From: an uncultured Dehalococcoidales bacterium
GTDB lineage: Bacteria; Chloroflexota; Dehalococcoidia; GIF9; UBA5629
Length of the DNA stretch: 64,000 bases
Direction: 5' to 3'
Assembly: GCA_964548415.1 (NCBI GenBank)
Contig: CAZJQG010000006.1
Span: 12,548-76,547 of the forward strand
Made by a program: the position numbers and the translations under genes. Below are positions 2,791 through 48,491 of the stretch, piece by piece (the first letter of the stretch is position 1; each line of letters begins with the position of its first letter). Below the pieces are notes generated by a model. The model was not told where the DNA came from. It searched no databases and saw only the letters and a list, made by a program, of their open reading frames with translations.

Positions 2791-4542
2791 ATGGGGTATA
2801 ATTACGGCATGTCCTCCCAGGTCTTTTACCGCAAATGGCGTCCTCAAAACCTATCGGAAGTAGTAGGACAAGAGCATGTAACCCAGACACTTCGCCACGC
2901 AGTGTCTGGCAGAAGGGTAGCCCATGCCTACCTTTTCTGCGGGCCTCGAGGCACAGGGAAGACCAGCACCGGCCGCATACTGGCTAAAGCTGTAAATTGC
3001 CTTAATCCAGAACAGGGCGAGCCGTGCAATAGCTGTGACTCATGCAAAGCTATAAACGAAGCCAGCGCCCCCGATATCATAGAAATAGACGCCGCCAGCA
3101 ATCGTGGCATCGATGAAATCCGCGACCTCAGAGAAAAGGTCAACTATACGCCCAACATAGCCCGCTACAAGGTCTACATCATAGACGAGGTACACATGAT
3201 AACCAAAGAGGCTTCCAATGCCTTCCTTAAAACGCTGGAAGAGCCACCTCCTCACGCCATATTCATACTGGCTACCACCGAACCGCATAAAGTGCTACCG
3301 ACTATAATGTCGCGCTGCCAGAGATTCGATTTTCACCGTCTGTCGCAATCGTCGGTTATCTCCAAGCTGAACTTTATCTGCGAAAAGGAGGATATCAAGA
3401 TCGCGCCTGAAGCCTTGAGACTGATTGCGAAGGTCACCACCGGAAGCCTACGTGACGGTGAAAATCTGCTGGAGCAATTGGTTACATACTACGGTCATGA
3501 TATCGAACTGCACCAGGTGCAGGAAATGTTGGGCATCAGCGGAGACTTACGCATTCGAGAGCTGGCCAAAAATATCGTCAACAAGGACATCACAGCCGGC
3601 CTAAAGACGATAAACAGCGTCGCCGGTGACGGGCTCGACCTCCGCCAGTTCAACCGGGAACTGGTGGACTATTTAAGAGAGTTGCTGCTGGTAAAGTCCG
3701 GCTCGGAAGAAGTTATAGACGTTACCGTCGACGACTTAATAGAGATAAAGGAACTAGCCAAGGGCGCCGGCCTTGACTACCTTTTAGTCGCTGTCAAGCG
3801 CTTCGGCGAGATCGACCTTCGCCTGGATAATTACTCCCCGCTTCCCCTGGAACTGGCGCTGGTCGATTGTGTACTTACCACAGGGGAAGCCAGAGAGCCG
3901 GTCAAAACCAAAAAGTCCGAACCTGTAGAGCCGACTGCAGAGGCCAGCCGGCCGGCCAAATCAACCAGGCAGGTACCGGAAGCAAAACATAAAGCCAAGG
4001 CGCCAGCCGAAACAGAAGTAAAGCCAGAAGCCTCGGCTGAATCAGAAGCCAAGATAGAAACTGAGGCTGATACCAAAGCGGAAGCTAAATCTGAAGCTAC
4101 AGTTCCCGCGCCGGCCAAGAGTGCCGGAACCGGAACTGAGACGAGTGAGGCCAAGGCTCCTGAGACATCGCCTTCTTCCGAGATGGAAGACATACGAAGT
4201 CGTTGGAAAGATTTTGTTAATGCCATGCGTGGCGAAGGCTCCAAAGGCAACCTGGATGCCTTCTTGCGCAGCTCCTGTGAACCCGTATCCATAGAAAACA
4301 ACACGCTGACGCTGGGTTTCTATCATAAGTTTCACAAGGAATATATCGAAGACCCCAAATACAGACATCTGGTGGAGAAGAAGCTCCGTGAGGTCTTCGG
4401 TCATTCTTACCAGGTGCGCTGCATTCTTATTGCGCCCAGGCCAAAAGTGAAGCTTGAAACGGAGAGCCCCCTCGTAAAAGCCGCCAAGGAAAACTATGGC
4501 GCTACCATCGTCGGCAGGAAGCCCAGAATGGAGGATGAATGA
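2791..4542 (+). CDS. dnaX: DNA polymerase III subunit gamma/tau
   Basis: Walker A GPRGTGKT, Zn module CNSCDSCKAI, SRC motif (MSRCQRF), and an acidic/Lys-Ala-Glu-rich linker. The start could instead be the second ATG at 2809 (MSSQVFYRKWRPQ). Confidence 0.93.
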   Translation: MGYNYGMSSQVFYRKWRPQNLSEVVGQEHVTQTLRHAVSGRRVAHAYLFCGPRGTGKTSTGRILAKAVNCLNPEQGEPCNSCDSCKAINEASAPDIIEIDAASNRGIDEIRDLREKVNYTPNIARYKVYIIDEVHMITKEASNAFLKTLEEPPPHAIFILATTEPHKVLPTIMSRCQRFDFHRLSQSSVISKLNFICEKEDIKIAPEALRLIAKVTTGSLRDGENLLEQLVTYYGHDIELHQVQEMLGISGDLRIRELAKNIVNKDITAGLKTINSVAGDGLDLRQFNRELVDYLRELLLVKSGSEEVIDVTVDDLIEIKELAKGAGLDYLLVAVKRFGEIDLRLDNYSPLPLELALVDCVLTTGEAREPVKTKKSEPVEPTAEASRPAKSTRQVPEAKHKAKAPAETEVKPEASAESEAKIETEADTKAEAKSEATVPAPAKSAGTGTETSEAKAPETSPSSEMEDIRSRWKDFVNAMRGEGSKGNLDAFLRSSCEPVSIENNTLTLGFYHKFHKEYIEDPKYRHLVEKKLREVFGHSYQVRCILIAPRPKVKLETESPLVKAAKENYGATIVGRKPRMEDE

Positions 4543-15987: not shown

Positions 15988-17172
15988 TTATTTGAAGCCC
16001 TGCTCCTTATGTTTCTGAGCAATTGTCTCTGCAAGATTGTCTAAAGCCATAAAATCAGCTTCTCTGGGATATCCTTTGACAATTACGGTTGGCAGCAATT
16101 CAACCTTTAGATTAGGTATCATAGCTACCAGTTGCTCCACTGTCTTACCTCCCCAGCCATAAGAACCGATAATCGACGCAAATTTCACGTTTGCTCTAAC
16201 CACGTTGGCCAGAGATGCCGCATAAGCCGCCTCCGGGTGTGGTCCGGCATGTACTGTAGGGGTTCCAATGACAATTGTCGCGGCATCTACCAGCGACATA
16301 GCCAGCTTACCCAGGTCTGTCACGGTGAGGTCGAACTGCTTCACCGTCACCCCCCGCTGGGTCAAAGCCTCGACTAAATAGGCCGCCATACTTCTGGTAC
16401 TTCCGTGCATGGAAACGTATGGCAGGACTACGATGTTCTTAGGTTCGCAGAACGCCCAATCGCGATGGGCTTTTATGATAAACTCGGGTTTATCGTACAC
16501 GGGTCCGTGGCTTGGGCAGATAAAGTCTATGGCATAATCGTTAATCTTTTCCAGATTTTTCTGTACGTTTGAGCGGAACGGCATCATGATTTCCGAATAA
16601 TATCTTTTGGCGGCTTCATATACCTGGCCTTCATCGGTTACATAAAGATTCGATGTGGCCAGATGGGAACCGAAGAAATCACAGGAGAAAAGCATTTTGT
16701 CTTCTTTCAGATATGTTAACATCGTTTCCGGCCAGTGAACCCAGGGAGCATGGATAAACTCGAGCGTCCGGTCTCCCAGCGTTACAGTTTCCTTATCCTC
16801 GACGGTAATAAATCTATCTTCCGGGATCAGGAGCAGGTCAATGAGCATTCCCTTACATCGTGGGGTACACACCAGCCTTGCCTCGGGATATTTCGCCAGC
16901 ACCCGCGGGATAGTCCCTGAATGGTCCTGCTCCGCGTGATTAGCTATAAGGTAATCAATCCGCTTTATTTTAAGCTCATCCAGATGGTCAAACAGGACAT
17001 GCTCCATGGTCGGATCCACCGTATCTATAAGAGCCGTTTTATCACCGCCCTTAATCAGATACGAGTTGTAACTAGTCCCATCTGGAAGCGGTATCAGCGA
17101 ATCGAAAAGGCGCCGGTCCCAGTCGACCGCTCCTACATGATAGACGCCGCGCTTAATTTCTCTCGGTTTCAT
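15988..17172 (-). CDS. fprA: Flavodiiron protein (A-type flavoprotein, O2/NO reductase)
   Basis: 394 aa. Metallo-beta-lactamase-like diiron domain (HAEQDHSG) followed by a flavodoxin-like domain (VVLPYVSMHGSTR). Confidence 0.9.
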   Translation of the reverse strand: MKPREIKRGVYHVGAVDWDRRLFDSLIPLPDGTSYNSYLIKGGDKTALIDTVDPTMEHVLFDHLDELKIKRIDYLIANHAEQDHSGTIPRVLAKYPEARLVCTPRCKGMLIDLLLIPEDRFITVEDKETVTLGDRTLEFIHAPWVHWPETMLTYLKEDKMLFSCDFFGSHLATSNLYVTDEGQVYEAAKRYYSEIMMPFRSNVQKNLEKINDYAIDFICPSHGPVYDKPEFIIKAHRDWAFCEPKNIVVLPYVSMHGSTRSMAAYLVEALTQRGVTVKQFDLTVTDLGKLAMSLVDAATIVIGTPTVHAGPHPEAAYAASLANVVRANVKFASIIGSYGWGGKTVEQLVAMIPNLKVELLPTVIVKGYPREADFMALDNLAETIAQKHKEQGFK

Positions 17173-17182
17173 TGTACCCCCG

Positions 17183-18394
17183 TTAGTATTGGAGAAGTCT
17201 TCGCTCTCCCTTTATCTTTTTAATCGGGGTAATATCCTGGGTCACTTCCAGACATCCCACATAACTGCCACCCCGACGGACTGCAAAATAGCGGATATGG
17301 ACCAATTTACCCTGCAGATTAATCCAGAACTGTGCCGAGTCTTCTTTGCCGCTTTTAAAATCTTCAAGTATCCGATTTACGATATTGACGCTTTTTTGAG
17401 GATGGCACTGCTGTACCTTGAGCCCGATAATGGCTTTTGCCCTGGGGAAAATTCTGTCTTTGGACTGGCTGAAATAACGCACCGTATCGTCCTTATCCAC
17501 AAAGGTCACGTCGACCGGCAAAGTATTGAATATTCCTTCAATCTGCTCTGGCAGCAGGTTACCGGTTTCAAAAGAGACCATGCCTTTCACCTCTGATTTA
17601 ACGCCTGCCTTTTCGATTTTTCCAAAGGCCACCGTGACCGGTTCGGGCGTAAAGCAGCAATAGCCTAGCTCATCGAACTGGCGCCTGATATCAATCCATT
17701 CGTCGTTGCCTATGACCTCGAGCGCCGCCGGGAACAGTATATTGTTCTCCTTGTAGAAATGATTCGATAACATTTCAGCCAACGCCAGAGCTACCTCGTT
17801 GAGATGTTTCACGAAATCTTTAAAATCGTGGCTTTCACAGCTATCAACGATGCGGTAAACGCTCTTCTCGGTATCCCTTATTCGGTCATGCTCCATCCAC
17901 ATAACCGCCGGGGGTTCTTTAATACCGTGTTTTTCTAAAGAGGGGAAGAGGACGTTTTCTTCTCTGATATAATGGCTGTCCGAATCCCTCAAATGCTTTA
18001 CTATGTGCTCCAGCTGGTCCATTTTTTCTCTCGCCGAAGCAAAATTTGCGGCTGCCTTCATTTCCATCGCCAGCTTTTTCAGGTCGTCGGCAAACTGCAG
18101 CAGAATTTTATGCTCTTCCATGAGAATTCGAACGGGGTGCCCGGCGGGCGCTATCGGCCCCTCCCGGTCAAACGATTCTTTAAGAAGGGCCAGGTGAACA
18201 TCGCAAAATTTCTGCAGCTCTTCTATAGCCAGGCCTTCCCTTACCAGTTCGTCCTCAACCTGCGCCATCTCGGCAGGTGGTACATAGCCGATTTGTTCCC
18301 GGCACTCACCTTTAATTTGCTCGGGGTCGGCACCATCATGCAGCCGCTTGATTAAGCTCTTTAATAACAGCTTCCTATCCTGTGCCTTAGTCAC
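17183..18394 (-). CDS. DUF438/hemerythrin-HHE/PAS-type domain protein
   Basis: 403 aa. N-terminal DUF438-like helix bundle, a central hemerythrin-like cation-binding region (HHxxEE-type helices) and a C-terminal PAS-like domain. Confidence 0.7.
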   Translation of the reverse strand: MTKAQDRKLLLKSLIKRLHDGADPEQIKGECREQIGYVPPAEMAQVEDELVREGLAIEELQKFCDVHLALLKESFDREGPIAPAGHPVRILMEEHKILLQFADDLKKLAMEMKAAANFASAREKMDQLEHIVKHLRDSDSHYIREENVLFPSLEKHGIKEPPAVMWMEHDRIRDTEKSVYRIVDSCESHDFKDFVKHLNEVALALAEMLSNHFYKENNILFPAALEVIGNDEWIDIRRQFDELGYCCFTPEPVTVAFGKIEKAGVKSEVKGMVSFETGNLLPEQIEGIFNTLPVDVTFVDKDDTVRYFSQSKDRIFPRAKAIIGLKVQQCHPQKSVNIVNRILEDFKSGKEDSAQFWINLQGKLVHIRYFAVRRGGSYVGCLEVTQDITPIKKIKGERRLLQY

Positions 18395-18433
18395 TGTTAC
18401 AACCTTTCACTTACCTTTTTATTCTGCTGTCGG

Positions 18434-18595
18434 TTAATCTATTTTGTCGAACTTATCCTTGGTAGCACCACAGACCGGACACACCCAATCATCCGGTAAC
18501 TTCTCCCAGGGCGTGCCTGCTGGCACGTGACCGTCCGGGTCACCGAGAGCCGGGTCATAAATATAGCCGCAAATCTGACACTGGTATTTTGACAT
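18434..18595 (-). CDS. rub: Rubredoxin
   Basis: Not in ORF track (53 aa). My translation is [53 protein letters not shown], with two CxxCG knuckles and the canonical rubredoxin sequence. The track ORF 18439..18678 is an out-of-frame shadow. Confidence 0.92.
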
Positions 18596-18610
18596 GATCG
18601 CCTCCTGTAT

Positions 18611-19132
18611 TTATTGTTGGACGTAAGTCGGAGCAGCCTTGGGCGTGGTGCCGCGCCTGACCTTATGGTAGTAATCATATGTCATTGGCTCTCCCTCTTT
18701 GATTATATCCGCTGCCACAATTTCCCCCACAAAGATGGTGTGTGTATGAACGTCTACCTGGTTGATCACCTTAGCCTCGATATACGCCACGGCATTGTCG
18801 ATAACTATAGGTGCGCCCACCTCTCCGATCTTATAATTGACGCCCTCAAATTTATCTACGTCCCTTCCTGATTTAAAGCCGAAATTACCAATGAATCTAA
18901 GAGGCGTCTCTTTGTCCAGGATAGAAACTGTGAAAACTTTACTGGCTGAGACGAATTCATTAGTTAAATTTTGTTTATTTAGCGCGCAAGCCACAACAGG
19001 CGGTTCCGAGCATACCTGAAATACAGTGTTCGAGAGCTGACCATTAAATTTGCCATCCTTTTTGGAACATAACACGTACATACCGTAAGTCATACTGTGA
19101 AGCGCTTGCAGATTCATTACAACTCCTTCCAT
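18611..19132 (-). CDS. Flavin reductase family protein
   Basis: 173 aa with a flavin reductase-like FMN-binding split barrel (YGMYVLCSK...NGQLSNTVFQVCSEPP...HTIFVGEIV). Confidence 0.85.
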   Translation of the reverse strand: MEGVVMNLQALHSMTYGMYVLCSKKDGKFNGQLSNTVFQVCSEPPVVACALNKQNLTNEFVSASKVFTVSILDKETPLRFIGNFGFKSGRDVDKFEGVNYKIGEVGAPIVIDNAVAYIEAKVINQVDVHTHTIFVGEIVAADIIKEGEPMTYDYYHKVRRGTTPKAAPTYVQQ

Positions 19133-19188
19133 AAATGCTTTTGAAATACTGCCCCCATCAGGCCCAAATACAATATCGGATTTATCGA

Positions 19189-19725
19189 TTAACCACCGTC
19201 GAGTGAATGATGTTCCGCCTTGCGAAAATAACCGGCCGGGTCAATCAGATATTCACGGTAGTCCACCAGAGCCAGATAGTGGCCCTGCTCTTCGGCAGCC
19301 AGCGCCGAATACAGTTTCTTCCCGGCGTCAAAGCCGACCTTTTGACTCTGGCTCAGGTAGAATTCACGCGTTTTGTTCTCCATCTCCATGGCCCCGGCTA
19401 TGCTATCGAGCTCCGTATCGATAGACTTGACCGTTGACGCCGCTGTTTTCATGGCGTCAGAAAACACCGTTTCCAGAATGTGGCCTTTTCCGGGTTGTAC
19501 CCCCATCTCCGGCCAAGCTTTCTGTTTTCTTATGGAGTTAAATATGCCGGCGAATATACGGCGGTGCTTGTCTTCTTCGCCTGCCAGCCAAAGAAAAAGC
19601 TCTTTGCCCAATTTATTATCGCTGCGCTGGCTGGCCTGTCGGTAATATTTTTTACCGTCGATCTCCATCTGAATTGCCAGTCGAATGGCTTCCACAGTCT
19701 CTTTTTGTTCTTGCCCTACAATCAT
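19189..19725 (-). CDS. Ferritin-like/rubrerythrin-family diiron protein (no rubredoxin domain)
   Basis: 178 aa with paired helices carrying E...ExxH-type ligands (MEIDGKKYY...GEEDKHRRIF; MEMENKTREFY...AEEQGHYLAL). Confidence 0.7.
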   Translation of the reverse strand: MIVGQEQKETVEAIRLAIQMEIDGKKYYRQASQRSDNKLGKELFLWLAGEEDKHRRIFAGIFNSIRKQKAWPEMGVQPGKGHILETVFSDAMKTAASTVKSIDTELDSIAGAMEMENKTREFYLSQSQKVGFDAGKKLYSALAAEEQGHYLALVDYREYLIDPAGYFRKAEHHSLDGG

Positions 19726-19737
19726 TTAAACTATCCC

Positions 19738-19968
19738 CTATTTCGCCTTCCTGACATAGGCATGATAGACGCTACCTTCCTCCTCGATTCCAAGACACTC
19801 GTTACCGGTGCTCTTGCACCAGTTGGGTATGTCGTCTTTTATACCTCTGTCATCAGCCAGGATTTCCAGCACCTGACCCGGCTTCATCTGCTTCATTTTT
19901 TGGGCGGTCTTGGCTATCGGCATCGGACAATAAAGCCCCATACAATCCAGAGTTTCGTCTGCTTTCAT
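19738..19968 (-). CDS. tusA: TusA/SirA-family sulfurtransferase
   Basis: 76 aa with the GLYCPMP active-site motif of the TusA family. Confidence 0.85.
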   Translation of the reverse strand: MKADETLDCMGLYCPMPIAKTAQKMKQMKPGQVLEILADDRGIKDDIPNWCKSTGNECLGIEEEGSVYHAYVRKAK

Positions 19969-19995
19969 AGCTAGTTTCTCCTGACCTGTTAATCG

Positions 19996-20229
19996 TTAGG
20001 TATTTTTACGCCCTTTCTTCAACGGTGCACCGCATTGAGGGCAGACGGTGGCGCCGACATCCGGTACCATTAAATTGCAACTGACACAGTAACTGATCAT
20101 CGATCCGCAGGCATGACAGAAAGGACAACTGGCACTAACCAGTTCCTCTTCACAATAAGGACATAGACACTTGTGCTGTTTCTTAGCCTTTCCAGCTTTA
20201 TTAGCAGACTTCACACTCTTCTCCTTCAT
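19996..20229 (-). CDS. Lys-rich zinc-ribbon protein (77 aa)
   Basis: Trimmed from track ORF 19996..20427 to the internal ATG (MKEKSVKS...). Three CxxC pairs (CPYC, CPFCHAC, CVSC, CPQC). The longer ORF overlaps nifU out of frame. Confidence 0.45.
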   Translation of the reverse strand: MKEKSVKSANKAGKAKKQHKCLCPYCEEELVSASCPFCHACGSMISYCVSCNLMVPDVGATVCPQCGAPLKKGRKNT

Positions 20230-20638
20230 CTTCTCCTCCTTTCTCTTGTAGACCTTCGATTTTGACGCCCTTCTTCTTGGCATAATCACGGATTGCTTCC
20301 TGAAGCGCCTGCGCTCCCAAATTAGAACAATGAAATTTATTCTTGGGCAGGCCCTCCAGTTCTTTGGCAACCAGGGCAGGTGTGATTTTAACGGCCTCTT
20401 CGAGCGTCTTACCTTTAGCCATTTCACTGGTCATGCTGGAAACCGCCACCGCAGCTCCGCAGCCGAAGGTCTGAAATTTAACGTCTTCGAGACGGTTGTC
20501 CTTGACCTTAATATAAAAGGTCATCATGTCGCCGCATACCGGATTACCAACCTCGCCCACACCGTCGGCGTCTTTAATCTCCCCGACATTCCGGGGATTC
20601 ATAAAATGGTCCATAACTTTATCGCTATATGCCGGCAT
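20201..20638 (-). CDS. nifU: IscU/NifU-type Fe-S cluster scaffold with acidic Cys-containing tail
   Basis: The motifs NPVCGD, FQTFGCGAAVA and HCSNLG are the three conserved scaffold cysteines. Confidence 0.9.
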   Translation of the reverse strand: MPAYSDKVMDHFMNPRNVGEIKDADGVGEVGNPVCGDMMTFYIKVKDNRLEDVKFQTFGCGAAVAVSSMTSEMAKGKTLEEAVKITPALVAKELEGLPKNKFHCSNLGAQALQEAIRDYAKKKGVKIEGLQEKGGEDEGEECEVC

Positions 20639-20644
20639 ATTCTC

Positions 20645-21844
20645 TCACCTCTTTTCTTTCATGAATTTGGCGTATAAAGGAGACATCTGCCTCAGCCTGC
20701 TTATAATAGGAGGCAATTTATTCAGCACGTAATCTACGTCAGCTTCCGTATGGTCGATGCCCAGACCAAAAAGCAAAGAACCCTGCGCGATTTCGTGAGG
20801 CAAGCCCATGGCGATCAGCACGTGCGAAGCCTTCAAGGCTTTGGATGTGCAGGCTGAGCCGCTGGAAACCGCAATGCCTTCCCGGTCAAGCCATAAAAGC
20901 ATCCCTTCCCCTTCGATGAATTCGATACAAAAACTGGCATTTTGTGGCAGACGCTGCGTAGGATGGCCGGTAACTAATACGTGTTCAACCGCAGCCGGTA
21001 AGCCTTTTATCAGCTTATCCCGCAGCTTGGATAACCTCTGGTTTCGCGCGGTCATATCTTGCACCGCCAACTCAGCGGCTTTGCCCATGCCGATAATGGC
21101 CGGAACGTTTTCGGTACCCGGTCTGCGTCCGCCTTCCTGCACACCTCCGTCCATCAAGGGAATTAGCCGTACCCTCTTGCGCACCCACAAAGCCCCAGAG
21201 CCCTTGGGACCGTAAAATTCGTTCCCTGCCAGACTCAGGGCATCTACTCCCAGCTTATTCACGTCAACCGGTATGGTCCCGGTACTGGCCACAGCATCCG
21301 TGTGAAACAAGACGCCGGCCTCTTTGACTTTCCTGGCTATATCTGCGATAGGTTCAATAGTGCCCACTTCACCATTGGCATGCATCACCGAGACAAGTAC
21401 GGTCTCTTTTTTAATATTGCTGGCCACTTCATCCGGGTCCACCATGCCGTATTTATCTACCGGCACTTCGGTGACCTCAAAGCCGGCCTTCTCCAGAGTC
21501 CTGGCGGCGTGCAGCACCGAGAAATGCTCGATTGCCGAGATAATCACGTGCTTACCTTTGGTTATCTGGCCCTGGGCCAGGCCTTTAATGGCCAGGTTAT
21601 TGGCTTCGGTTCCGCTGGAAGTGAAGATAATCTCTTCAGCTTCACCACCGATTAAGGCGGCTACCTGTTCGCGGGCTTTTTCTATAGCTTCTCTAGCTTC
21701 ATCACCCCAGGAATGGATCGATTGGGGATTGCCGTAAACCTGACGGAAATACGGCAGCATCGCCTCCAGCACGTCGGGTAGTACTGGCGTAGTGGCCATG
21801 TTATCCAGGTAAACTTTTCGTTCCGGCTTCTCATCATTCCCCAT
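20645..21844 (-). CDS. nifS: Cysteine desulfurase (NifS/IscS class)
   Basis: 399 aa. [11 protein letters not shown]-terminus, PLP-lysine region, SSGSACTS active-site loop. Overlaps the upstream gene by 11 nt. Confidence 0.93.
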
Positions 21845-22721
21845 TACCCATCTCCTGTTTTTTAGCTTGTTTCTTTACTTCGTTATATCTGGCCAGGCCT
21901 TCGTTAAACAGCCTTTCTTCTTCTTCACTAATAACAATAAGCGGCGGCACCGAAACTGGTTTGCCATTGTTGTCCGTGGCCACCATTATGTAGTGGGCGG
22001 TCATAGCCGGCCGGCGGGCCTCGGTAGCCAGGTTCTGGGCATCGATCTCCACACGTATCTCCATAGACGTTCGGCCGACGAAGGTTAGCCTGGCATGAAT
22101 CAGCACAACTTCCCCCACGTGAACGGGGGAAAGGAAACGGATATCATGCACCGTGCCGGTTACCGGATTAGCCTGGCTGTGCCTGGCGGCTACCACGCCC
22201 GCAGCGTTATCCATCATTTTCATGAGCTCACCGCCGTGGACCACGCCGGCCGGATTGCTGTGATGCGGCAGCATTAGCTCCGCCATATCCACCGCGGAGT
22301 GCCCCACAGTCTTGCCCTTCATCTCTTTTTCCCCGCGAAAAGCTTCTAACAGCTGATTGAAAGTTTCCTCGTGCCGCTTCTCCACCTTGCCCACTCGCTC
22401 GAAGAAGTTCTCGATTTTCTCGAAACCTTCTTCACTGGCGATCCGCGCGGCTTCGGGATATAACCTGCTGGCCTCTTCGTGTTCACGACCGATGGCAAGC
22501 TTAAGATTGGACTCGGTAACACCCAGGTCACCCAGAAATTTAAACTCGTGTTCGGCGTGCTCGGCTTCGTTCTGCGCTGTAGCCGCAAACATATCGGCGA
22601 TCTGGTCAAGCCCCGCCTCTCTGGCTGCTTTGGCAAAATAACTATAGATAGCCTGCACGCGCACTTCTCTGGCAAACGCCTGGCGTAAAGCTTCCTCCGT
22701 CCTGCTGCCTTTCAATCTCAT
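21834..22721 (-). CDS. Fusion protein: rubrerythrin-like diiron domain + hotdog-fold acyl-CoA thioesterase domain
   Basis: N-terminal about 140 aa has [10 protein letters not shown] and VEKRHEETF diiron helices. C-terminal about 150 aa has [23 protein letters not shown]...[12 protein letters not shown], the YciA/Acot-type hotdog signature. It is a single uninterrupted ORF. Confidence 0.8.
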
Positions 22722-22789
22722 AAATATCTCCTCGGTTAAGTGACTCGTTTTGGCCCTATTAAGCGTTTTTTAAGCGACCATTGACGACT

Positions 22790-23029
22790 CTACGGCACAT
22801 TCAGTTTTTCCTTTAGCCATTTTTCGTCGTAGCCTATTGAAATCTCGCCGTCGATGTCGACGACCGGTACTACCAGTTTACCCGTCTTGCTCACCATTTC
22901 ATCGCGGGCAATTTTGTTCTGGGAAACGTCCAGATACTTGTAAACGATTTTATTCTCGTCAAGCAGCTGCTTGACCTTAAAGCACCACGGTCAGGTAGTT
23001 GTAGAATAGAGTTTAACTTCTTTTGCCAT
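22790..23029 (-). CDS. Glutaredoxin-like selenoprotein candidate (in-frame TGA = Sec at codon 13; active site T-U-P-W-C)
   Basis: Not in ORF track. ATG at 23027-23029 follows GGAGG. Reads MAKEVKLYSTTT[TGA]PWCFKVKQLLDENKIVYKYLDVSQNKIARDEMVSKTGKLVVPVVDIDGEISIGYDEKWLKEKLNVP then TAG. Grx/NrdH fold landmarks are present (beta1, then CxxC position, then VP cis-Pro, then G..D). The TGA lies exactly where the first redox Cys belongs. Confidence 0.72.
22958..22975 (-). promoter_or_regulatory. Candidate bacterial SECIS hairpin
   Basis: Perfect 18-nt palindrome GUCAAGCAGCUGCUUGAC (7-bp stem, AGCU loop). It starts 16 nt after the UGA and has a G in the first two loop positions. Confidence 0.45.
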
Positions 23030-23169
23030 TTCGCCTCCTACAAAAAATTTCACTACAGTCAGCTGTATTTCCTTGCGCAATTATATAGCCGTAAATACGA
23101 AAAACGGCAGCTTCACACGCTGATAGACAATACGAATTGACCCCCGCTATAATACCCGGTCCTAAATTA

Positions 23170-23198
23170 AATATATGTAGGCTCATTATTATTGTCAA
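23170..23198 (-). promoter_or_regulatory. Sigma-70-type promoter candidate for the selenoprotein/rubrerythrin operon
   Basis: The minus strand reads TTGACA-17 nt-TATATT. This leaves a leader of about 130 nt before the ATG at 23029. Confidence 0.4.
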
Positions 23199-23320
23199 GC
23201 AGACGTAACTTATGTCTACTATACCCTCGCCGACTAATCGAGGATATTATGCACCATCAATCGTAAAATAGTCGCAAAATAGAGAGCTAAAAAGTTAAAA
23301 ACTTATGACATTTACCGAGG

Positions 23321-23509
23321 TCACTTAAACGGTCTCTGACCGTCTTCTTTTCTCAGCTTCTGAATACCGCAAGCGTTATTTTGCGCCGCCTTAACCCTAG
23401 CCCGTATCTCATGCAAGATTTCCCAGCCCATCTTCTCGTCGTGGTCGATAACCGCCTGTTCCAACCTGTCCACCTGCTGTTCATCAAGCGTAACCACTGC
23501 TTTCGGCAT
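23321..23509 (-). CDS. Small hypothetical protein (62 aa) translationally coupled to fur-family gene
   Basis: Trimmed from track ORF 23321..23551. The ATG overlaps the Fur-family TGA stop as TGATG at 23507-23511. Sequence begins MPKAVVTLDEQQVDRLEQAVIDHDEKMGWEILHEIRARV. Confidence 0.45.
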   Translation of the reverse strand: MPKAVVTLDEQQVDRLEQAVIDHDEKMGWEILHEIRARVKAAQNNACGIQKLRKEDGQRPFK

Positions 23510-23904
23510 CAACTTTCTCCAACCGCGGCTGCCAGCTGACATTCCAGACACAGCCCATAGAATTCCAGTCTATGGTACAATACCCGGAAACCCGTCCGTC
23601 GGGCCGCTATTTTATCCAGCTCCGAATTTAAAGGCTCATCAACATCGAAGACCCCTCCGCATGTTTCACATCGTAAATGATAATGATTATCGGTTCTGGC
23701 ATCGAAGCGGCTTAGGCAACTGCAAAGCACAAGCTCCGTTATCTCGCCGTTCTGGGAAAGCTGCCTCAGATTCCGATATACGGTGCCCAAACTGATATTA
23801 GGTATCTCCTTCCTGACCTGGCGGTATACCCAGTCGGCCGTGGGATGAGATGTCGTGTTTTTTAAGACTTCGAGTATGGCCTGCTTTTGTCTAGTTTTTC
23901 TCAT
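23509..23904 (-). CDS. Fur-family transcriptional regulator (Fur/PerR/Zur subtype undetermined)
   Basis: 131 aa. Winged helix (SLGTVYRNLRQL), HYHLRC metal site, and two CxxC pairs (CETC, CLEC) for structural Zn. Confidence 0.9.
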   Translation of the reverse strand: MRKTRQKQAILEVLKNTTSHPTADWVYRQVRKEIPNISLGTVYRNLRQLSQNGEITELVLCSCLSRFDARTDNHYHLRCETCGGVFDVDEPLNSELDKIAARRTGFRVLYHRLEFYGLCLECQLAAAVGES

Positions 23905-37838: not shown

Positions 37839-38591
37839 CTAACTATATATGCCGCTAAGCAATGGAGTGGGATCAAGCCAGGGACCTACAGAGTTCACCG
37901 GGTATTTGAAGCCTATCTTGGCCAGTTCCTTTAGTCCCGTTGTCGTTCTCTCCAACTCGCCGACCGGCAAGGCTATGGTGATCTCATCATCGGAAACCCC
38001 GCCCATAGACCTCTCTCCATAACAGGGTATGCTAACCGATGGCTTACCGGTGATATAGCACTGCGCCAGCGAATCGGTGCAGGCCCCTTCACCGATAAAG
38101 GAGAACGAGAAGCGCTCGTACTTTACTTTCTGAAGGCCGCAAAGCACCATCATTATCTGGGCCGGGTTTCCGTACATAAGAACAACCTCCGGCTCAAATT
38201 TCTGCTTCGTCAGGGGAGCCAGCACGATGGCGCCACCCATGGGAATCCGGTAATAATCGTTCTGCTGCTGCAGGGCGTCTTCAGGCGACCGGAACCAGGT
38301 CTTGGACAGCATAGCCGCTTCGGCGTTCATGCTTTTTTCGCTGGCCTGCTTGAGACCGAACAGCCTGGAGCAGCGGTCCTGTATCTTATCCTCGCGTGTG
38401 ATGCCTACTGTGATGCCGTTAACGCGCACCATAAAAGGCACCTGGCAGAAGGTGAAGAAGCGCTCGAGCCTGACCACATTCTTAACGTTATGCAGGGCCT
38501 CGGCCTTCTCCAGCCTGCGGTAGGCTATTATCTTGGTTCTAAGCCTTAAAGAGTTCTCGAGCTCGGTACCCAGTTCAAGCCAGTTTAGCAT
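37839..38591 (-). CDS. DUF169-like protein
   Basis: Start trimmed to MLNWLELG (the track ORF extends to 38660 into the upstream gene). Overall pattern, including the C-terminal CYGERSMGGVSDDEITIALP, resembles DUF169/COG2043 proteins. Confidence 0.55.
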   Translation of the reverse strand: MLNWLELGTELENSLRLRTKIIAYRRLEKAEALHNVKNVVRLERFFTFCQVPFMVRVNGITVGITREDKIQDRCSRLFGLKQASEKSMNAEAAMLSKTWFRSPEDALQQQNDYYRIPMGGAIVLAPLTKQKFEPEVVLMYGNPAQIMMVLCGLQKVKYERFSFSFIGEGACTDSLAQCYITGKPSVSIPCYGERSMGGVSDDEITIALPVGELERTTTGLKELAKIGFKYPVNSVGPWLDPTPLLSGIYS

Positions 38592-38631
38592 TGCTTTATC
38601 TCCTTTAATAACAAAATATCTAAATGAAAGG

Positions 38632-39819
38632 CTAATGCCTTCGCGTCGGCAGAGATTCAAGCACGATCTGTGAGATATCCTTTACCGTCAGCTTGTCCTC
38701 AAGGCCTTCACTCTTTACAGCATCGGTGAACATGGCCAGGCAGCTGGGACAGGCAACCGCCAAAGTGTCAGCACCAGTGGCATAGGCATCCCTGATCCTG
38801 ATACGCGCCGGGCTGTCCTGCCCCCCTGCCAGCAAGTCCATAATGAAGTTGCCGCTGCCGCCACCGCAGCAGAAGGCATCGGCTCTATTCTTTTCCATTT
38901 CCATCAGCTCAAGGCCGGGTATGCTGCACAATATCTTCCTCGGCTCCTCATAAATTTGGTTATACCGACCCAGAAAACACGGGTCCTGATAGGTGACCTT
39001 TGCCTTATTTGGAGAAAGCTTTACCTTATTTTCTTTGATTAAATCAGCGAGAAGTTGGCTATAGTGATACACCTCGAAGCTGGCACCCAGTGAAGGGTAG
39101 CGGTTTTTCATAACGTTGTAAGCGTGTGGAGACAGTGTTACTATCTTCTTTACACCGTGCTCTTTAAATTTCTGGTTATTTTTTTCAACCAGAGTTTGAA
39201 ACAGCCCCATTTCACCCATCATGTAGACCTCGTTGCCGCAGCACTCCTCATCGTTACCCAGTATACCGAAGGAAACCCCAGCTGCGTTAAGTACATCAGC
39301 CAGGCTTCTGGCCATTCTCTGCCCGTTCTCGTCGTAAGAGCCCAGGCAGCCCACATATAAAAGATATTCGTCGCCCGGAGCATATATCTTCGTGCCGTTG
39401 GCCCAGGCAGCTCTATCATCTCTGAGCAGTTTGTAAGGATTACCGTATCCGTAAACGGCCTCGAAGAAGCGGGCCACCCTGGGCGGTATCTTACCTTTTT
39501 CTACCATGTCGCTCCTGGCTCCCACTATCCAATCGACGATATCGGGAGCGAACTTCATTGGGCACTGTTCGGTGCAGTTCTTACAGGTGGTACACGTGTA
39601 CAGGATTTCCGCGAGGCGTTCCGACCATTCAACGTCACCCTTCAACCAGCCGTATATGAGCCACAGCCTGCCACCGGTAGAATAAGTATCAAATCTAAAT
39701 CTTCTGTAGGCCGGGCAATTCAAAGAAGAATAGTCAGTAGGGAACTTGCAGTAACCGCATCTAAAACATCTATGGATTTGGCTGGCATAGTCCTGTTGCT
39801 GCATTATCTCGCCTCCCAA
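38632..39819 (-). CDS. (Fe-S)-binding protein with CCG domains (HdrD/GlcF-like)
   Basis: Two ferredoxin-type clusters (CFRCGYCKF...CP; CTTCKNCTEQCP) and two cysteine-rich CCG motifs (ECCGNE, FCCGGGSG). Confidence 0.8.
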   Translation of the reverse strand: MGGEIMQQQDYASQIHRCFRCGYCKFPTDYSSLNCPAYRRFRFDTYSTGGRLWLIYGWLKGDVEWSERLAEILYTCTTCKNCTEQCPMKFAPDIVDWIVGARSDMVEKGKIPPRVARFFEAVYGYGNPYKLLRDDRAAWANGTKIYAPGDEYLLYVGCLGSYDENGQRMARSLADVLNAAGVSFGILGNDEECCGNEVYMMGEMGLFQTLVEKNNQKFKEHGVKKIVTLSPHAYNVMKNRYPSLGASFEVYHYSQLLADLIKENKVKLSPNKAKVTYQDPCFLGRYNQIYEEPRKILCSIPGLELMEMEKNRADAFCCGGGSGNFIMDLLAGGQDSPARIRIRDAYATGADTLAVACPSCLAMFTDAVKSEGLEDKLTVKDISQIVLESLPTRRH

Positions 39820-41186
39820 TTTCCCGGATTCATAATTCCGTTAGGGTCCAGGAGTTTTTTTATACTCATCATGAGCTCCAGCGTGTTCGGGTCCATCCTC
39901 TCCATCATTATCTTCTGCTCATCTATGTTTGGTTTCCACAGGAGCCCACCCTTGTCCGCTACAAACTCGGCCGCTTCATGTAAAGCTTTTCGAGCTCTGC
40001 CCATCTCGTCCTGGTTCGCCCGATTGAACGTGTAAGCAAACGAGAACATCATACAGTGGCCGCCGTGAATAACCCGGCCTGAGCCACCGTACACGACTTT
40101 ATATTTTACGGCCAGTTCTGCCACTTTTCTGGCGCATTCCGGATACAGCTCCATGGGAATAATCGGCCCGGCGTATTCGAAACCGCCTCCCTTTCTGACA
40201 TCGGCAAAAGCAGTCATGCTTTTCTGTGGGTTGTCCATGAAGTCATGTCTCATATCGAGATTGATGGTCATAAACCCTGCATCCCTGCTATCAACATACG
40301 CTTGAACCGAATCATATACCATCTTCCTCTTCATCTCGAGCTCGTCTTCGGAGTCTGCGGTCAAGAAGATGTTGATGTGATAGTTCCCTCTGAACATTAG
40401 CGGCCGCTCCTGGGCCCAGATAGCCAGGTCTTCTACCATCTCCGTATGGGTTATCTTGTATATGATGTATGGTATTAGGTCTTCCTTGTCTGTTACCAGT
40501 ATTTCCAGGTCCTTCATTTTCTTTTTCGGATAAAGTTTTAAACCAACCTTTGTCAGGATACCCGTGGTACCGAGCCAGCCCAAAAACAGTCCTGATAAAT
40601 CGGGCAGCGGAGGCCCTTTAGAAAACCAGAACGGCCCCACCGAACAAGAACCGATTTTGCAGACGTCTCCTGTAGGCAAAACCACCTCCAGACCGTTAAC
40701 CATATCTGAGTTAAAACCGTATTGATTTGTCAGCCGCCCCTGCCCATGTATCACAACATTCGCGGCTATGGTGGTTATCGGAGGAGCTTCGGGAACGCTG
40801 TGTCTCAAATCAGGATAGTGCTTATTTAAATGGTCTCTCAACGCCCCATTGGAAACGCCGCCCTCGACGACAACATATCTGGCACCCTCGTTTACTTCAA
40901 TAATTTTGTCCATCCTCTTCATATCCATCACTATCCCGCCCCTAAGTGGAATAACAAGGCCGGTCAACGCCAGTCCCGCTCCCTTGGGAACTATCGACAC
41001 CTTCTCCTTGTTTGCCAGCTTCACTATCTGCTGCACTTCCTCGGTCGTCTTAGGCATTACCACGTAATCAGCTTCATGAGGCGTCATTAAACCGGGGTCG
41101 CGCCCATAGAAATAACGCTCTTCGTGGTGGTTCGAAGCGAAATCTTTGCCTACTATCTTAACGAGGGCTTCCAATACATCGTTCAT
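39804..41186 (-). CDS. FAD-linked oxidase (GlcD/D-lactate dehydrogenase-like)
   Basis: 460 aa. FAD_binding_4-type N-terminal domain (VVMPKTTEEVQQIVKLANKEKVSIVPKGAGLALTG). Overlaps both neighbours (4 nt and 16 nt). Confidence 0.85.
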   Translation of the reverse strand: MNDVLEALVKIVGKDFASNHHEERYFYGRDPGLMTPHEADYVVMPKTTEEVQQIVKLANKEKVSIVPKGAGLALTGLVIPLRGGIVMDMKRMDKIIEVNEGARYVVVEGGVSNGALRDHLNKHYPDLRHSVPEAPPITTIAANVVIHGQGRLTNQYGFNSDMVNGLEVVLPTGDVCKIGSCSVGPFWFSKGPPLPDLSGLFLGWLGTTGILTKVGLKLYPKKKMKDLEILVTDKEDLIPYIIYKITHTEMVEDLAIWAQERPLMFRGNYHINIFLTADSEDELEMKRKMVYDSVQAYVDSRDAGFMTINLDMRHDFMDNPQKSMTAFADVRKGGGFEYAGPIIPMELYPECARKVAELAVKYKVVYGGSGRVIHGGHCMMFSFAYTFNRANQDEMGRARKALHEAAEFVADKGGLLWKPNIDEQKIMMERMDPNTLELMMSIKKLLDPNGIMNPGNWEAR

Positions 41187-42223
41187 ACTGTCACCTCCAC
41201 TACCTGTTTTTCACCGATCGCCAGTTTGCACAGGTCGATTATATGTATCGGTTTCATCCCCCGCCTGGCAACTTTCTCAGCTAGAGGGTCCCAGCAGGCG
41301 GGGCAGTTGAACACGCAGTATTCAGCTCCGTGTTTGACCATATCGTCAATGTTCCTCTTTTGTACATCATGTCCGGCATCGTAACCCTTTGAAGTCATTA
41401 AAAGCCCCCCACAACACAGCGCATTTTCATGGTCATATTCCCGTTTAACTCTCTCAACCCCAATGAGCTCGAATATATCGTCAACGAAGTGGTCTGTTTC
41501 CGGCGACAATCGGGCGGAGCAGTTCCGATGATACGCAGCTTTGATATTGAGCGGCTTTATGTCACTCCGGAGCTCTGTTAGCCTGTTATACATATACTCA
41601 AAGTAGTGAATCGATTTAAACGGGACCTCAATGCCATAAGCCGGGGCCAGCTTGGTAAAGGTACCGTAACATTCGTCATGTAAAAATATGACTTCTTTGA
41701 TCCCCTGATTCCAGATATTGTCTATTACCTTGGGAAGGTTTTCCTTTATCACTGACATCCTGGCAAAATGCAAGAACATGGCCTGACAGAAAAACTCAGT
41801 ACCCAAGATCCACGAGGGGAGAATATCTTCAAATAGCTTTCCGCTGGCTAAGGTATACAATCTGGGTATAGCGCAGAAAGATAACGCTGTTTGACCGGGT
41901 TTTCCCACTAGAAATTTGCCCTGTGCGGTGGTCATATTGATTGCCTGCTTGGTGATGGGCCTGGATTGAGGTAGTATCCCCATCTCTTCCTGACGCTCGA
42001 CAATTAAATATAGAGGGTGATTGCCAAATGGACAATATTCCTCACACGCATAGCAGGTAACGCAGGCCTTCAATATTGGAGAATCTTCGCCGGCGATTAC
42101 CTTCCGCCATTCTTTTCTAGCCGACTCTTTATCGTAATCCATATACTGGCATTTGACCAGACAGCTCATGGCTTTACAGCTAGCGCATTGGGTTTTGTCA
42201 AACTTAAGATGAGGCATTCTCAA
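41183..42223 (-). CDS. (Fe-S)-binding protein with CCG domain (second HdrD-like subunit)
   Basis: CASCKAMSCLVKCQ and CVTCYACEEYCP clusters, plus ALCCGG and FNCPACW motifs. Confidence 0.8.
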   Translation of the reverse strand: MRMPHLKFDKTQCASCKAMSCLVKCQYMDYDKESARKEWRKVIAGEDSPILKACVTCYACEEYCPFGNHPLYLIVERQEEMGILPQSRPITKQAINMTTAQGKFLVGKPGQTALSFCAIPRLYTLASGKLFEDILPSWILGTEFFCQAMFLHFARMSVIKENLPKVIDNIWNQGIKEVIFLHDECYGTFTKLAPAYGIEVPFKSIHYFEYMYNRLTELRSDIKPLNIKAAYHRNCSARLSPETDHFVDDIFELIGVERVKREYDHENALCCGGLLMTSKGYDAGHDVQKRNIDDMVKHGAEYCVFNCPACWDPLAEKVARRGMKPIHIIDLCKLAIGEKQVVEVTV

Positions 42224-42387: not shown

Positions 42388-42930
42388 GTGTTAAGTGAAG
42401 AATATTTAGTACAGCAGGCGATAAATGGTAATCAAGCGGCATTTACGCAGCTATATAACCAGAATTTTGATAGGATACATCGATATATCTTTATCAAGGT
42501 ACGAGACCGGGCTCAGGCGGAGGATTTAACACAAGATGTATTCATCAGAGCTCTGGAGTCGATTAATACCTATAAATGGCGAGACCTGCCATTTGCGGCC
42601 TGGTTATTCAAGATCGCTCATAACAGGGTAATTGACCATGTACGTAAGCAGTCGAAAGAAAAAAGGGCCCCACTCGAGGAAGCTTATGCCAGGAGCGTGG
42701 AAGACCCGATACAGATGACAGAAAGGGATTATGAGGTATATCAATTGAAGTTGGCACTTGAACAGTTACCGGAGGCGCAACGAGATGTTGCCACCCTGCG
42801 TTTTATCGGCCAGCTGTCTATAGCGGAGGTGGCCAAGACGCTCGGTAAAAGTGAAGGTACGGTCAAGGCGTTACAGTTCAATGCCACAGCTTCATTGAGG
42901 AAAGCTCTTTACGGAAAATTTGATGTCTAG
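42388..42930 (+). CDS. ECF-type RNA polymerase sigma factor
   Basis: 180 aa with sigma-70 region 2 (DLTQDVFIRALE...WLFKIAHNRVIDHVRK) and region 4 (SIAEVAKTLGKSEGTVKALQFNA). Confidence 0.9.
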   Translation: MLSEEYLVQQAINGNQAAFTQLYNQNFDRIHRYIFIKVRDRAQAEDLTQDVFIRALESINTYKWRDLPFAAWLFKIAHNRVIDHVRKQSKEKRAPLEEAYARSVEDPIQMTERDYEVYQLKLALEQLPEAQRDVATLRFIGQLSIAEVAKTLGKSEGTVKALQFNATASLRKALYGKFDV

Positions 42931-44119
42931 AAATTTAGACGATATATTCAACGAATGTTACGAGCGGATACGCTTCGGCGAAAGCCTCGAAAGCGTCCTC
43001 CGGAGCTACCCGCAGTACCGTTCACAGTTGGAACCTCTGCTCAGAACGACCTTTGATATCGGGCGCAGGGCGTCCTTTATTCAGCCTCGTCCGGAATTCA
43101 GGCACTGGGCCAGGGTGCGCTTCGAATCGGCCATGCAGTACCCGCAGCGGCAGCAGGAGCCGGTTAGAAGGGAAACCCAGGCAGCTTCCATGTGGCTGCG
43201 GCACGGCTGGGCTGTGATTGTCAGTGCTGGTATAGTGCTCATGCTAGGTGTTGGAAGCACCATGGCCGCATCGTCACAGGCCATGCCTACGGACCCTCTC
43301 TATGCGTTAAAGCCGCTCACCGAAGATGTGCAGAGAGCCTTTGCCGTATCGCCGGACCGTAAAGCTCAATTTGAAACCGACATCGCCAATATCAGGGCGG
43401 CCGAGTTACAGGCTATGGCTGATGCCGGCAATGCCCAGGAGGCGGCCAAGGCAGCCCAGAGATATGACGACCAGTTCGAAAAGGCGGTACAGGCTATTTT
43501 AGCTACAGAAGGGACTGAGCCTATAGTTACCAGGCCCCCGGTGGCCACGCCGGTGACCACGCCAACGCCGGTTACACCGACGCCTGTGGTTACTCCACCT
43601 GTCGAGGTACCCACACCTGTAGTTACAAGTACCGATAACGGTACGGCGGGTGAAAATGCAGCTACCGAGAATACAACTCAGTCCGGAACTGCCACGCCGC
43701 CTGCTGTTCCCGTAACCTCGGAAAACACCACTCCACCGGATACTCCTGCTGTAACGACAGGTACTGGGGAGCAGCCTACCGCGGTAACCGAGGAGCAACC
43801 GGCGGTAACTGAAGAGCAGCCGGCTACAACTACCTCCGGTAGTACTCAGTCTTCCAAGGCCCAGGAGTTGAGGGACAGGCTGAACCGCCAGAAATCCACA
43901 GTCGAGCAGTCCTTAAAGGACGCCCGGGAGAAGGCATCACATCAAGATAAATCGAACTGGCAGGACACCATCGACAAAGTATCGAAGAAGACTGCCACCC
44001 GGACTACGTCAGAGCAAAGCGATAGCTCCAATCAGACCACCATTCAGACGGACAACAAGACTGTACCCAATACCGGTTCGGACAAGAACAGACCTTCCTC
44101 TTCAAATCGGCATCGCTAA
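42920..44119 (+). CDS. Putative anti-sigma factor (single TM, DUF5667-like extracytoplasmic helical domain, Pro/Thr-rich linker)
   Basis: 11-nt overlap with the sigma gene. TM helix (WAVIVSAGIVLMLGVG), helical domain, then a PVTTPTPVTPTPVVTPP low-complexity stretch. Confidence 0.6.
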   Translation: MMSRNLDDIFNECYERIRFGESLESVLRSYPQYRSQLEPLLRTTFDIGRRASFIQPRPEFRHWARVRFESAMQYPQRQQEPVRRETQAASMWLRHGWAVIVSAGIVLMLGVGSTMAASSQAMPTDPLYALKPLTEDVQRAFAVSPDRKAQFETDIANIRAAELQAMADAGNAQEAAKAAQRYDDQFEKAVQAILATEGTEPIVTRPPVATPVTTPTPVTPTPVVTPPVEVPTPVVTSTDNGTAGENAATENTTQSGTATPPAVPVTSENTTPPDTPAVTTGTGEQPTAVTEEQPAVTEEQPATTTSGSTQSSKAQELRDRLNRQKSTVEQSLKDAREKASHQDKSNWQDTIDKVSKKTATRTTSEQSDSSNQTTIQTDNKTVPNTGSDKNRPSSSNRHR

Positions 44120-46442: not shown

Positions 46443-46465
46443 AAAAAGCTCCACGGATGAACCGG

Positions 46466-46493
46466 AAGGGGACACGCATGGTGTCCCCTTTCT
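46466..46493 (+). terminator. Rho-independent terminator after paralog 1
   Basis: AAGGGGACAC-gcatg-GTGTCCCCTT followed by a T-rich stretch. Confidence 0.7.
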
Positions 46494-46528
46494 CGTCCCT
46501 ATATATCTGGCGGGCACGCTGCTACCCA

Positions 46529-46556
46529 TTGACAAGCTAAAGCATCCTGATATAAT
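46529..46556 (+). promoter_or_regulatory. Promoter of paralog 2
   Basis: CCATTGACAAG-...-ATCCTGaTATAAT, with a 16-nt spacer and an extended -10. Confidence 0.6.
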
Positions 46557-46620
46557 TCGTTAAGGACAATCACGGACTACCGCGTGGAAAAGCGGCAATA
46601 TACAGCTTAGGAGGTCTATC

Positions 46621-48372: not shown

Positions 48373-48392
48373 AATCAGCTCTGTAACAATCA

Positions 48393-48427
48393 AAAAGGGG
48401 ACTTTACACTGGAGTCCCCTTTTTTAT
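48393..48427 (+). terminator. Rho-independent terminator after paralog 2
   Basis: GGGGACT-9 nt loop-AGTCCCC followed by TTTTTTATTTTT. Confidence 0.7.
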
Positions 48428-48463
48428 TTTTCGAAAACTTCAAAATAGTTGACAGCCGGGCTA

Positions 48464-48491
48464 TTGACAAACTGACACCGGATGTTATACT
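48464..48491 (+). promoter_or_regulatory. Promoter of paralog 3
   Basis: TTGACA-16 nt-TGtTATACT. A second TTGACA lies at 48449-48454. Confidence 0.5.

Follow-up and report, generated by a model that had tools for sequence, protein, structure and literature searches.

In a 64,000-nucleotide stretch of the genome of an uncultured Dehalococcoidales bacterium (contig CAZJQG010000006.1; the whole stretch is hereafter called the window), we describe a minus-strand locus that is very probably an intact gene whose 79-residue product is a thiol/selenol oxidoreductase of the glutaredoxin fold. Its reading frame carries one in-frame TGA codon, and we consider it highly likely, on sequence grounds, that the product is a selenocysteine (Sec)-containing protein. 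The locus is thus very probably a selenoprotein gene of Dehalococcoidia, adding one more member to a known selenoprotein family that has been put to experimental test. In every sequence-level property tested, it behaves as a bacterial selenoprotein gene. A preliminary description, prepared from the DNA sequence alone, had put the locus forward as a candidate selenoprotein gene; that proposal is now supported by the pairing of Sec and Cys forms among homologs, by a hairpin specific to the TGA forms, and by a native Sec at the same residue of the glutaredoxin in PDB entry 7c10.

The glutaredoxin (Grx) frame consists of 12 codons, MAKEVKLYSTTT, followed by the TGA at 22993-22991 and then by PWCFKVKQLLDENKIVYKYLDVSQNKIARDEMVSKTGKLVVPVVDIDGEISIGYDEKWLKEKLNVP, which begins PWCFKVKQ and ends NVP. 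The TGA is the sole interruption of this 79-residue frame and occupies the place of the first Cys in the CxxC motif, which thereby reads U-P-W-C. The frame had been outlined in the preliminary description as running from an ATG with GGAGG upstream, through the TGA, to a TAG, and its coordinates are correct (Table 1). The accompanying explanation of why the gene had been missed, namely that neither half is visible as an open reading frame (ORF), also holds: the locus offers no ORF of useful length, and the JGI annotation of the same DNA calls only a 35-aa fragment there. When Cys is placed at the TGA, the 79-aa product matches the Pfam Glutaredoxin family (PF00462) over residues 5-62 with 63 bits, exceeding the gathering threshold of 22.9 (E = 2.9e-17). 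The U/C column, at the start of helix 1, aligns with Cys13 of 7c10, in agreement with the earlier assignment of the TGA to the first Cys of the motif. Upstream of the ATG, a GGAGG-type ribosome-binding motif is present in 26 aligned loci, with one or two mismatches in a few of them.

Related loci were collected by scanning one genome per species, which yielded 80 loci, and by a metagenome scan, which contributed 80 more. Across these loci, the first motif position is TGA in 33 and TGT or TGC in 96, the latter count including about 10 unrelated CPxC ORFs in the flanks that were excluded from the later Sec versus Cys hairpin comparison. The genome-contig scan supplied TGA forms from 10 metagenome-assembled genomes (MAGs). 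MAGs with a TGA form include CAYPRI01, CAZJID01, VGOO01, CAVVVB01 and DAOUCT01, whereas CAZQRP01 has a Cys form. All named TGA forms derive from Dehalococcoidia, Dehalococcoidales or Chloroflexota MAGs and share the motif T-U-P-W-C, and their proteins are 59-86% identical to that of the window. Cys forms were recovered from one Dehalococcoidales MAG (L008) and from Omnitrophota, Patescibacteria, Thermotogota, Clostridium and others. Where the Sec column of a homolog is not TGA it is Cys, never Trp or Gly, which answers the earlier question of whether homologs carry Cys or TGA at this position.

The segments on either side of the TGA are both conserved as protein. Among 27 distinct TGA-form genes, codons 2-12 and 14-79 show protein-level conservation with synonymous variation, and Ala2, Lys6, Tyr8 and Thr10 are each invariant yet spelled by two or three codons. 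As the residues preceding the TGA are fixed while their codons vary, this segment is translated in the proposed frame. The preliminary description had named, as a result that would speak against the gene, homologs that end at the TGA with no conservation downstream; instead, both sides proved to be conserved in frame. In addition, the gene, including its TGA, is base-for-base identical in three assemblies representing at least two samples (JGI 3300022556, ENA ERZ27245614 and JGI 3300025136). This identity, together with the sharing of the TGA column by 33 independent related loci, places the pattern beyond chance.

The coding sequence downstream of the TGA contains a candidate bacterial selenocysteine insertion sequence (SECIS) hairpin, which begins 15 nt after the UGA and has its first loop base 22 nt after it. 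Its predicted folding energy of -10.6 kcal/mol was equalled by 3 of 1000 shuffles. In the passages of PMC13188914 that set out a bacterial SECIS (bSECIS) model, the stem is given as 4-16 bp, the loop as 3-9 nt with a G in the first two loop positions, the UGA-loop spacing as 16-37 nt and the energy as -7.5 kcal/mol or lower. The window hairpin lies within all four of these published criteria, with 7 bp in the stem, a 4-nt loop (AGCU) with G at position 2, and the spacing and energy given above. RNAalifold, applied to 25 distinct TGA-form sequences, independently predicted the same helix, and 92% of the cells in the hairpin alignment are paired, compared with 23-44% when the 3' arm is slid. An alternative hairpin, UGACC/GGUCA, appeared in some minimum-free-energy folds and was discarded, since sequences with AAA-GUC do not preserve it. 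In overall layout, the locus follows the fdhF paradigm of E. coli and the bSECIS consensus of Zhang and Gladyshev, with an in-frame UGA and then a stem-loop inside the ORF; unlike the E. coli fdhF SECIS, however, with which it shares no sequence similarity, the window stem is short and has no clear lower stem.

Conservation of this hairpin follows the TGA codon. Sec forms retain a mean of 6.3 of the 7 pairs with a mean energy of -8.05 kcal/mol, whereas 76 Cys forms average 4.3 of 7 pairs and -2.2 kcal/mol. Synonymous codon entropy in the five pairing codons is 0-0.38 bits, against a minimum of 0.44 and a mean of 1.09 in the 58 other degenerate codons. The pairing codons of the TGA forms are accordingly almost fixed as GTC (25/27), AAG (21/21), CAG (27/27), TTG (14/15) and GAC (26/26); window-wide codon usage is about 50% for AAG and about 54% for GAC. 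The closest Cys forms (P0004-P0006, encoded on the contigs of loci L170-L175) have the same VKQLLDEN peptide and differ by synonymous changes, TTG to TTA and GAC to GAT, that weaken the hairpin to between -1.6 and -4.0 kcal/mol. The contrast in pairing between Sec and Cys forms, the frozen synonymous sites and their relaxation in the closest Cys forms together argue for selection on the hairpin at the RNA level, coupled to the presence of the TGA. The Cys forms at L170-L175 look like the outcome of a recent Sec-to-Cys conversion followed by SECIS decay.

A further line of support comes from the best PDB match of the product, 7c10, which is glutaredoxin-1 (cGrx1) of C. oremlandii OhILAs (E = 1.1e-14; 41% identity over 76 residues). 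In Clostridium (Alkaliphilus) oremlandii, cGrx1 (PDB 7c10, 7c12 and 7c13) is a native selenoprotein that reduces selenoprotein MsrA; its motif is U-P-H-C, in which Sec13 is catalytic and Cys16 resolving. The window protein shares with it the length class (~80 aa), the N-terminus MAKEV..., Sec13 in U-P-x-C and the resolving Cys16. It differs in having U-P-W-C for U-P-H-C, in its host, which belongs to Dehalococcoidia and not Clostridium, and in that no MsrA gene was found among the window genes scanned. Moreover, cGrx1 is recycled by glutathione according to the published work, whereas the gene neighborhood in the window's relatives points to a TrxR-like reductase.

Among NCBIfam models, the top match of the product, with Cys substituted for Sec, is TIGR02196 (YruB). 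In the portion of PMC3720550 that treats this family, which cites Reynolds et al. 2002, YruB is identified with Cp9 of C. pasteurianum, a 75-80 aa C-P-[YW]-C redoxin whose gene lies between those of Cp34 (a TrxR-like reductase) and Cp20 (a peroxiredoxin), and Cp9 is described as shuttling electrons between the two. By the features listed there, the window protein resembles Cp9 in its length of 79 aa, in its U-P-W-C counterpart of C-P-[YW]-C, and in its VKLYS segment, which fits [IV]-x-[ILV]-[YF]-[ST]; the oxidative-stress context is also shared, and many of the Cys relatives, like 17 of the 33 Sec ones, have a TrxR/AhpF-C-like gene directly beside Grx. Unlike Cp9, it has Sec in place of the first Cys and rubrerythrin-type neighbors, and the TrxR-like gene is absent from the window; nor did any locus inspected have a peroxiredoxin gene beside Grx. 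A literature search combining YruB with selenoproteins returned no reported link.

Two other assignments were considered and rejected. NrdH-redoxins and BC3987 of Bacillus cereus are likewise small Grx-fold proteins and are reduced by thioredoxin reductase, and weak matches on this side were recovered (TIGR02194, 29.9 bits against a cutoff of 85.75; PDB 1r7h, 3zit and 3zij). The window motif, however, is neither C-V-Q-C nor C-P-P-C, and an NrdH identity was set aside for want of the C-[VMI]-Q-C (C-V-Q-C) motif, of an nrdHIEF context or nearby ribonucleotide reductase genes, and of a score anywhere near the cutoff. The UXX-star Grx-like selenoproteins were also rejected, with 50.6 bits against a cutoff of 66 for NF041212 and 34.2 against 72 for NF041114; we take the family name to imply a Sec three residues before the stop, and the window Sec is at residue 13 of 79. 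By its sequence features, the protein appears to belong to the short Cp9/YruB/cGrx1-like branch of PF00462.

Several observations weigh against the selenoprotein reading. With respect to the hairpin, covariation is thin, comprising one G:C to A:U double change (L088) plus changes of C:G to U:G and A:U to G:U, and half of the sequences have an A.G or A.C mismatch. Within the encoded peptide, reverse-complementary codons specify the pairs Lys/Leu, Gln/Leu and Val/Asp, so part of the helix could come from the peptide alone. The window loop AGCU places C after its G, a position at which G or U predominates in the published model and among the relatives. No Rfam family corresponds to the hairpin: none reached the gathering threshold anywhere in the 64 kb, and over 22700-23100, at E values up to 10, there was no meaningful match, to SECIS or otherwise. 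With respect to decoding, searches of the window, of its ~10-kb extensions and of the related loci yielded no tRNA-Sec, selA, selB or selD. ARAGORN detected no tRNA of any kind in the window and 12 related loci; tblastn with approximate E. coli SelA, SelB and SelD probes gave no match in the window and L001-L083; Pfam and NCBIfam scans of 40 window ORFs, with JGI Pfam calls for the rest, revealed no sel gene, MsrA, peroxiredoxin or TrxR; and the 10-kb extensions on both sides, obtained via flanking genes, held housekeeping genes only. With respect to family and context, the TIGR02196 score of 75.5 bits is below the curated cutoff of 88.55, and no TrxR-like, peroxiredoxin or MsrA gene adjoins Grx in the window.

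One alternative, which we regard as very unlikely, is that the hairpin is a by-product of the VKQLLD peptide or a generic translational pause site, and that some other element directs recoding. The codon complementarity and weak covariation noted above fit this view, as does the pairing that Cys forms keep in register. Yet the GTC, AAG, CAG, TTG and GAC choices are fixed in TGA forms only, and the same choices relax in Cys forms with an identical peptide. Another counterexample is locus L012, in which the peptide is different (KVKGFLTS) and the 3' arm is one nucleotide out of frame register, and which still keeps the helix as GUCAAG-GGGUU-CUUGAC; the agreement of position, loop and energy with the published bSECIS model is likewise at odds with a by-product.

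We consider it highly improbable that the UGA is instead read as Trp, Gly or Cys, through code reassignment or near-cognate suppression and without selenocysteine. TGA terminates 14 of the 53 window ORFs of at least 100 aa, including dnaX (4540-4542) and the PerR-like gene (23511-23509), the two examples from which the preliminary description had correctly concluded that TGA is an ordinary stop elsewhere; the genetic code of the window is therefore standard. A codon-usage-scored scan for other ORFs with a single TGA read-through found none that was credible in the window or in 17 related loci, the candidates being rejected as consecutive in-frame genes or antisense noise. What speaks for a standard amino acid is that three database clusters (P0001-P0003) are translated with Trp at the Sec codon, the W coming from a code-4 gene caller, and that Sec machinery was not found in the regions surveyed. 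Such a reading would, however, leave a homolog column that is Cys and never Trp or Gly, a SECIS-type hairpin with constrained synonymous sites that accompanies TGA and decays in Cys forms, and the native Sec of the homolog cGrx1 at this very residue.

Public protein sets offer another version of the gene, with a translation start placed beyond the TGA. Some 100 clusters at 90% identity (P0018-P0120) are cut to 57-63 aa in this way and named 'glutaredoxin 3', 'NrdH-redoxin' or 'glutaredoxin family protein'. Despite this number of annotations, a genuine start at that point, giving a truncated domain without a redox motif, is scarcely credible: by the alignment to 7c10, strand beta-1 and the entire U/CxxC site would be missing from such a product, protein-level conservation extends over the 12 codons preceding the TGA and the P-W-C that follows, the conserved GGAGG precedes the upstream ATG and no internal start, and the annotated starts vary between clusters, as is typical of gene-caller artefacts. 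The truncated clusters, together with the Trp-containing P0001-P0003, are a systematic mis-annotation. Finally, a pseudogene or an assembly or sequencing error, in which a nonsense mutation in a TGY Cys codon has abolished the functional protein, would fit the skipped locus or 35-aa call of gene callers and the missing Sec machinery in the window, but its probability is negligible, because the three assemblies are identical, TGA recurs at one column in 33 loci whose proteins are just 59-86% identical to that of the window, distant homologs have TGT or TGC there, both flanks are under purifying selection at the protein level, and the ribosome-binding site is conserved.

The gene neighborhood agrees with the redox context proposed in the preliminary description, which had placed the gene between a Fur-family regulator and a rubrerythrin/NifSU/FprA block: the PerR/Fur-family regulator lies upstream, and the rubrerythrin fusion, NifS, NifU and FprA follow downstream on the same strand (Table 1). 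Across the Sec loci, the conserved one-strand order is DZR-NfeD-PerR-orf62-Grx-Rbr::4HBT-NifS-NifU-TusA-Rbr-flavin reductase-rubredoxin-hemerythrin-FprA. In 26 of the 33 Sec loci, PerR and Grx lie no more than 3 kb apart. The 62-aa ORF, which has no Pfam or NCBIfam match, recurs between PerR and Grx in 22 of 33 related loci at 62-77% identity and is, from these sequence comparisons, a real small gene. The fusion of rubrerythrin to a 4HBT (acyl-CoA thioesterase) domain, without a rubredoxin-like tail, adjoins Grx in 28 of the 33 Sec loci; this domain combination is unusual. Because the spacer between the Grx gene and the fusion gene in the window is 68 nt and has no terminator-like site, co-transcription of the two is likely. 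In L170-L173, PerR and Grx are separated by an inserted HSP20 gene.

Table 1. Features of the Grx locus in the window and location of the TrxR-like gene in related loci
Feature	Position	Strand	Description
Grx-like selenoprotein gene (proposed)	22790..23029	minus	79 codons including one proposed Sec-UGA, plus TAG stop; complete
Start and stop codons of the Grx gene	ATG at 23029; TAG 22792-22790	minus	
Shine-Dalgarno AGGAGG	23034..23039	minus	5' of ATG 23029
In-frame TGA	22991..22993	minus	Codon 13, first position of the U-P-W-C redox motif; proposed Sec codon
Candidate bacterial SECIS hairpin	22958..22975	minus	GUCAAGC-AGCU-GCUUGAC; 7-bp stem, loop 22968-22965
Sigma-70-like promoter TTGACA-17-TATATT	23170..23198	minus	Pattern match only, 11/12; ~140 nt upstream of the ATG
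Conserved non-coding block	~23235-23330	minus	AAATGTCATAAGTTTTTAACTTTT ... ATTTTACGACTATTTTACGA ... GCATAATATC; palindrome AAGTT-TTT-AACTT plus direct repeat
62-aa ORF of no known family	23321..23509	minus	MPKAVVTLDEQQVDRLEQAVIDHDEK...; ATG overlaps the PerR stop (TGATG)
PerR/Fur-family regulator	23509..23904	minus	NCBIfam PerR models, E 4e-33, below curated cutoffs
Rubrerythrin::4HBT-thioesterase fusion gene	21834..22721	minus	295 aa; 68 nt downstream of the Grx gene
Rest of cluster	15988..21844	minus	NifS, NifU, TusA-like, rubrerythrin, flavin reductase, rubredoxin, hemerythrin/DUF438, FprA flavodiiron protein
303-aa TrxR-like gene in related loci	L007 6255-7166; L010 6247-7158		Also in L003, L004, L006, L009, L096-L105, L113, L170-L173

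Upstream of the Grx gene, the TTGACA-17-TATATT motif is kept in about half of the related loci, with a variable leader that in L003, L004, L092, L100 and L110 holds a terminator-like hairpin. The conserved non-coding block may, from its sequence, be an operator or promoter. A 303-aa TrxR/AhpF-C-like flavoprotein with a CATC motif is encoded directly after Grx in many Cys loci spread over several phyla and in 17 of the 33 Sec loci; two of these 17 matches are truncated at a contig end. Its scores, 309 bits for the TrxR-like part of AhpF and 291 for TrxR, do not reach the equivalog cutoff in either case. This gene is not next to Grx in the window's nearest relatives (L001, L002 and L084-L094) and is absent from the whole window, which suggests that it was lost or relocated in the window's sublineage.

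Elsewhere in the window, six tandem plus-strand genes (44307-56132) encode proteins of 526-711 aa with signal-peptide-like N-termini; several of these N-termini are alike, and the genes may be paralogs. The first has no Pfam match, the last has CLIPPER-type domains according to JGI, and the array comes after a sigma-factor/DUF5667 pair at 42388-44119. On the minus strand, 37839-42223 encodes a DUF169 protein, two CCG-domain Fe-S proteins (HdrD/GlpC-like) and an FAD-linked oxidase; this Fe-S oxidoreductase family includes known selenoproteins, though no in-frame TGA was found in the cluster. The two ends of the window map to two contigs of the same JGI metagenome (Ga0212121_10000062 and Ga0212121_10002835), and the window thus comes from a more contiguous assembly than those.

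On the selenoprotein reading, the UGA at codon 13 would be read as selenocysteine to give the active site U-P-W-C, with recoding directed by the hairpin inside the coding sequence, its loop 22 nt after the UGA. By analogy with the standard bacterial mechanism, from which we infer this step, the hairpin would serve at the ribosome as the binding site of SelB loaded with Sec-tRNA(Sec). In catalysis, Sec13 would attack and Cys16 resolve. Grx(Sec) could then act as a small electron carrier in a PerR-linked cluster for oxygen and peroxide defense and Fe-S repair, control by PerR being suggested by adjacency. In most relatives, the TrxR/AhpF-C-like flavoprotein encoded directly downstream would reduce Grx, which would hand the electrons on to a peroxidase or repair enzyme; since the reductase gene is not adjacent in the window's sublineage, the reductase would there be encoded elsewhere. 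We judge the chances of this path, from TrxR-like flavoprotein through Grx(Sec) to target, to be about evenly balanced.

A broader interpretation, which we advance tentatively and regard as unlikely, is that the Sec form marks a selenium-dependent, PerR-controlled oxygen and peroxide defense module of a strictly anaerobic Dehalococcoidia clade. Such a module could comprise PerR, the 62-aa ORF, Grx(Sec), the TrxR-like reductase, the rubrerythrin::thioesterase fusion, NifS/NifU/TusA and FprA. The window sublineage, having no TrxR in the operon, could draw on another donor, for example the downstream flavin reductase/rubredoxin branch, and Grx(Sec) might serve rubrerythrin-type peroxidases instead of a peroxiredoxin.

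Both selenoprotein glutaredoxins and Sec-rich Dehalococcoidia have already been described. Grx (PF00462, UxxC) is listed among the experimentally verified prokaryotic selenoproteins, BSepDB contains two Dehalococcoidia MAGs with 49 and 46 selenoprotein genes, which are among the richest bacteria, and an earlier paper remarked on Sec-annotated dehydrogenases in Dehalococcoidales. The present locus leaves knowledge of Sec decoding and of selenoprotein families unchanged and adds some local detail, namely the U-P-W-C motif, the PerR-linked cluster, the TrxR-like partner in relatives and the widespread database mis-annotation. As these genes are either missing from databases or recorded as N-terminally truncated forms without an active site, inventories of redox proteins and of selenium use in Dehalococcoidia are undercounted. 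Obligate anaerobes are thereby seen to encode a probable selenoprotein within a conserved, PerR-linked cluster for oxidative stress and Fe-S repair, and the gene neighborhood provides a testable electron path from the TrxR-like flavoprotein to Grx(Sec).

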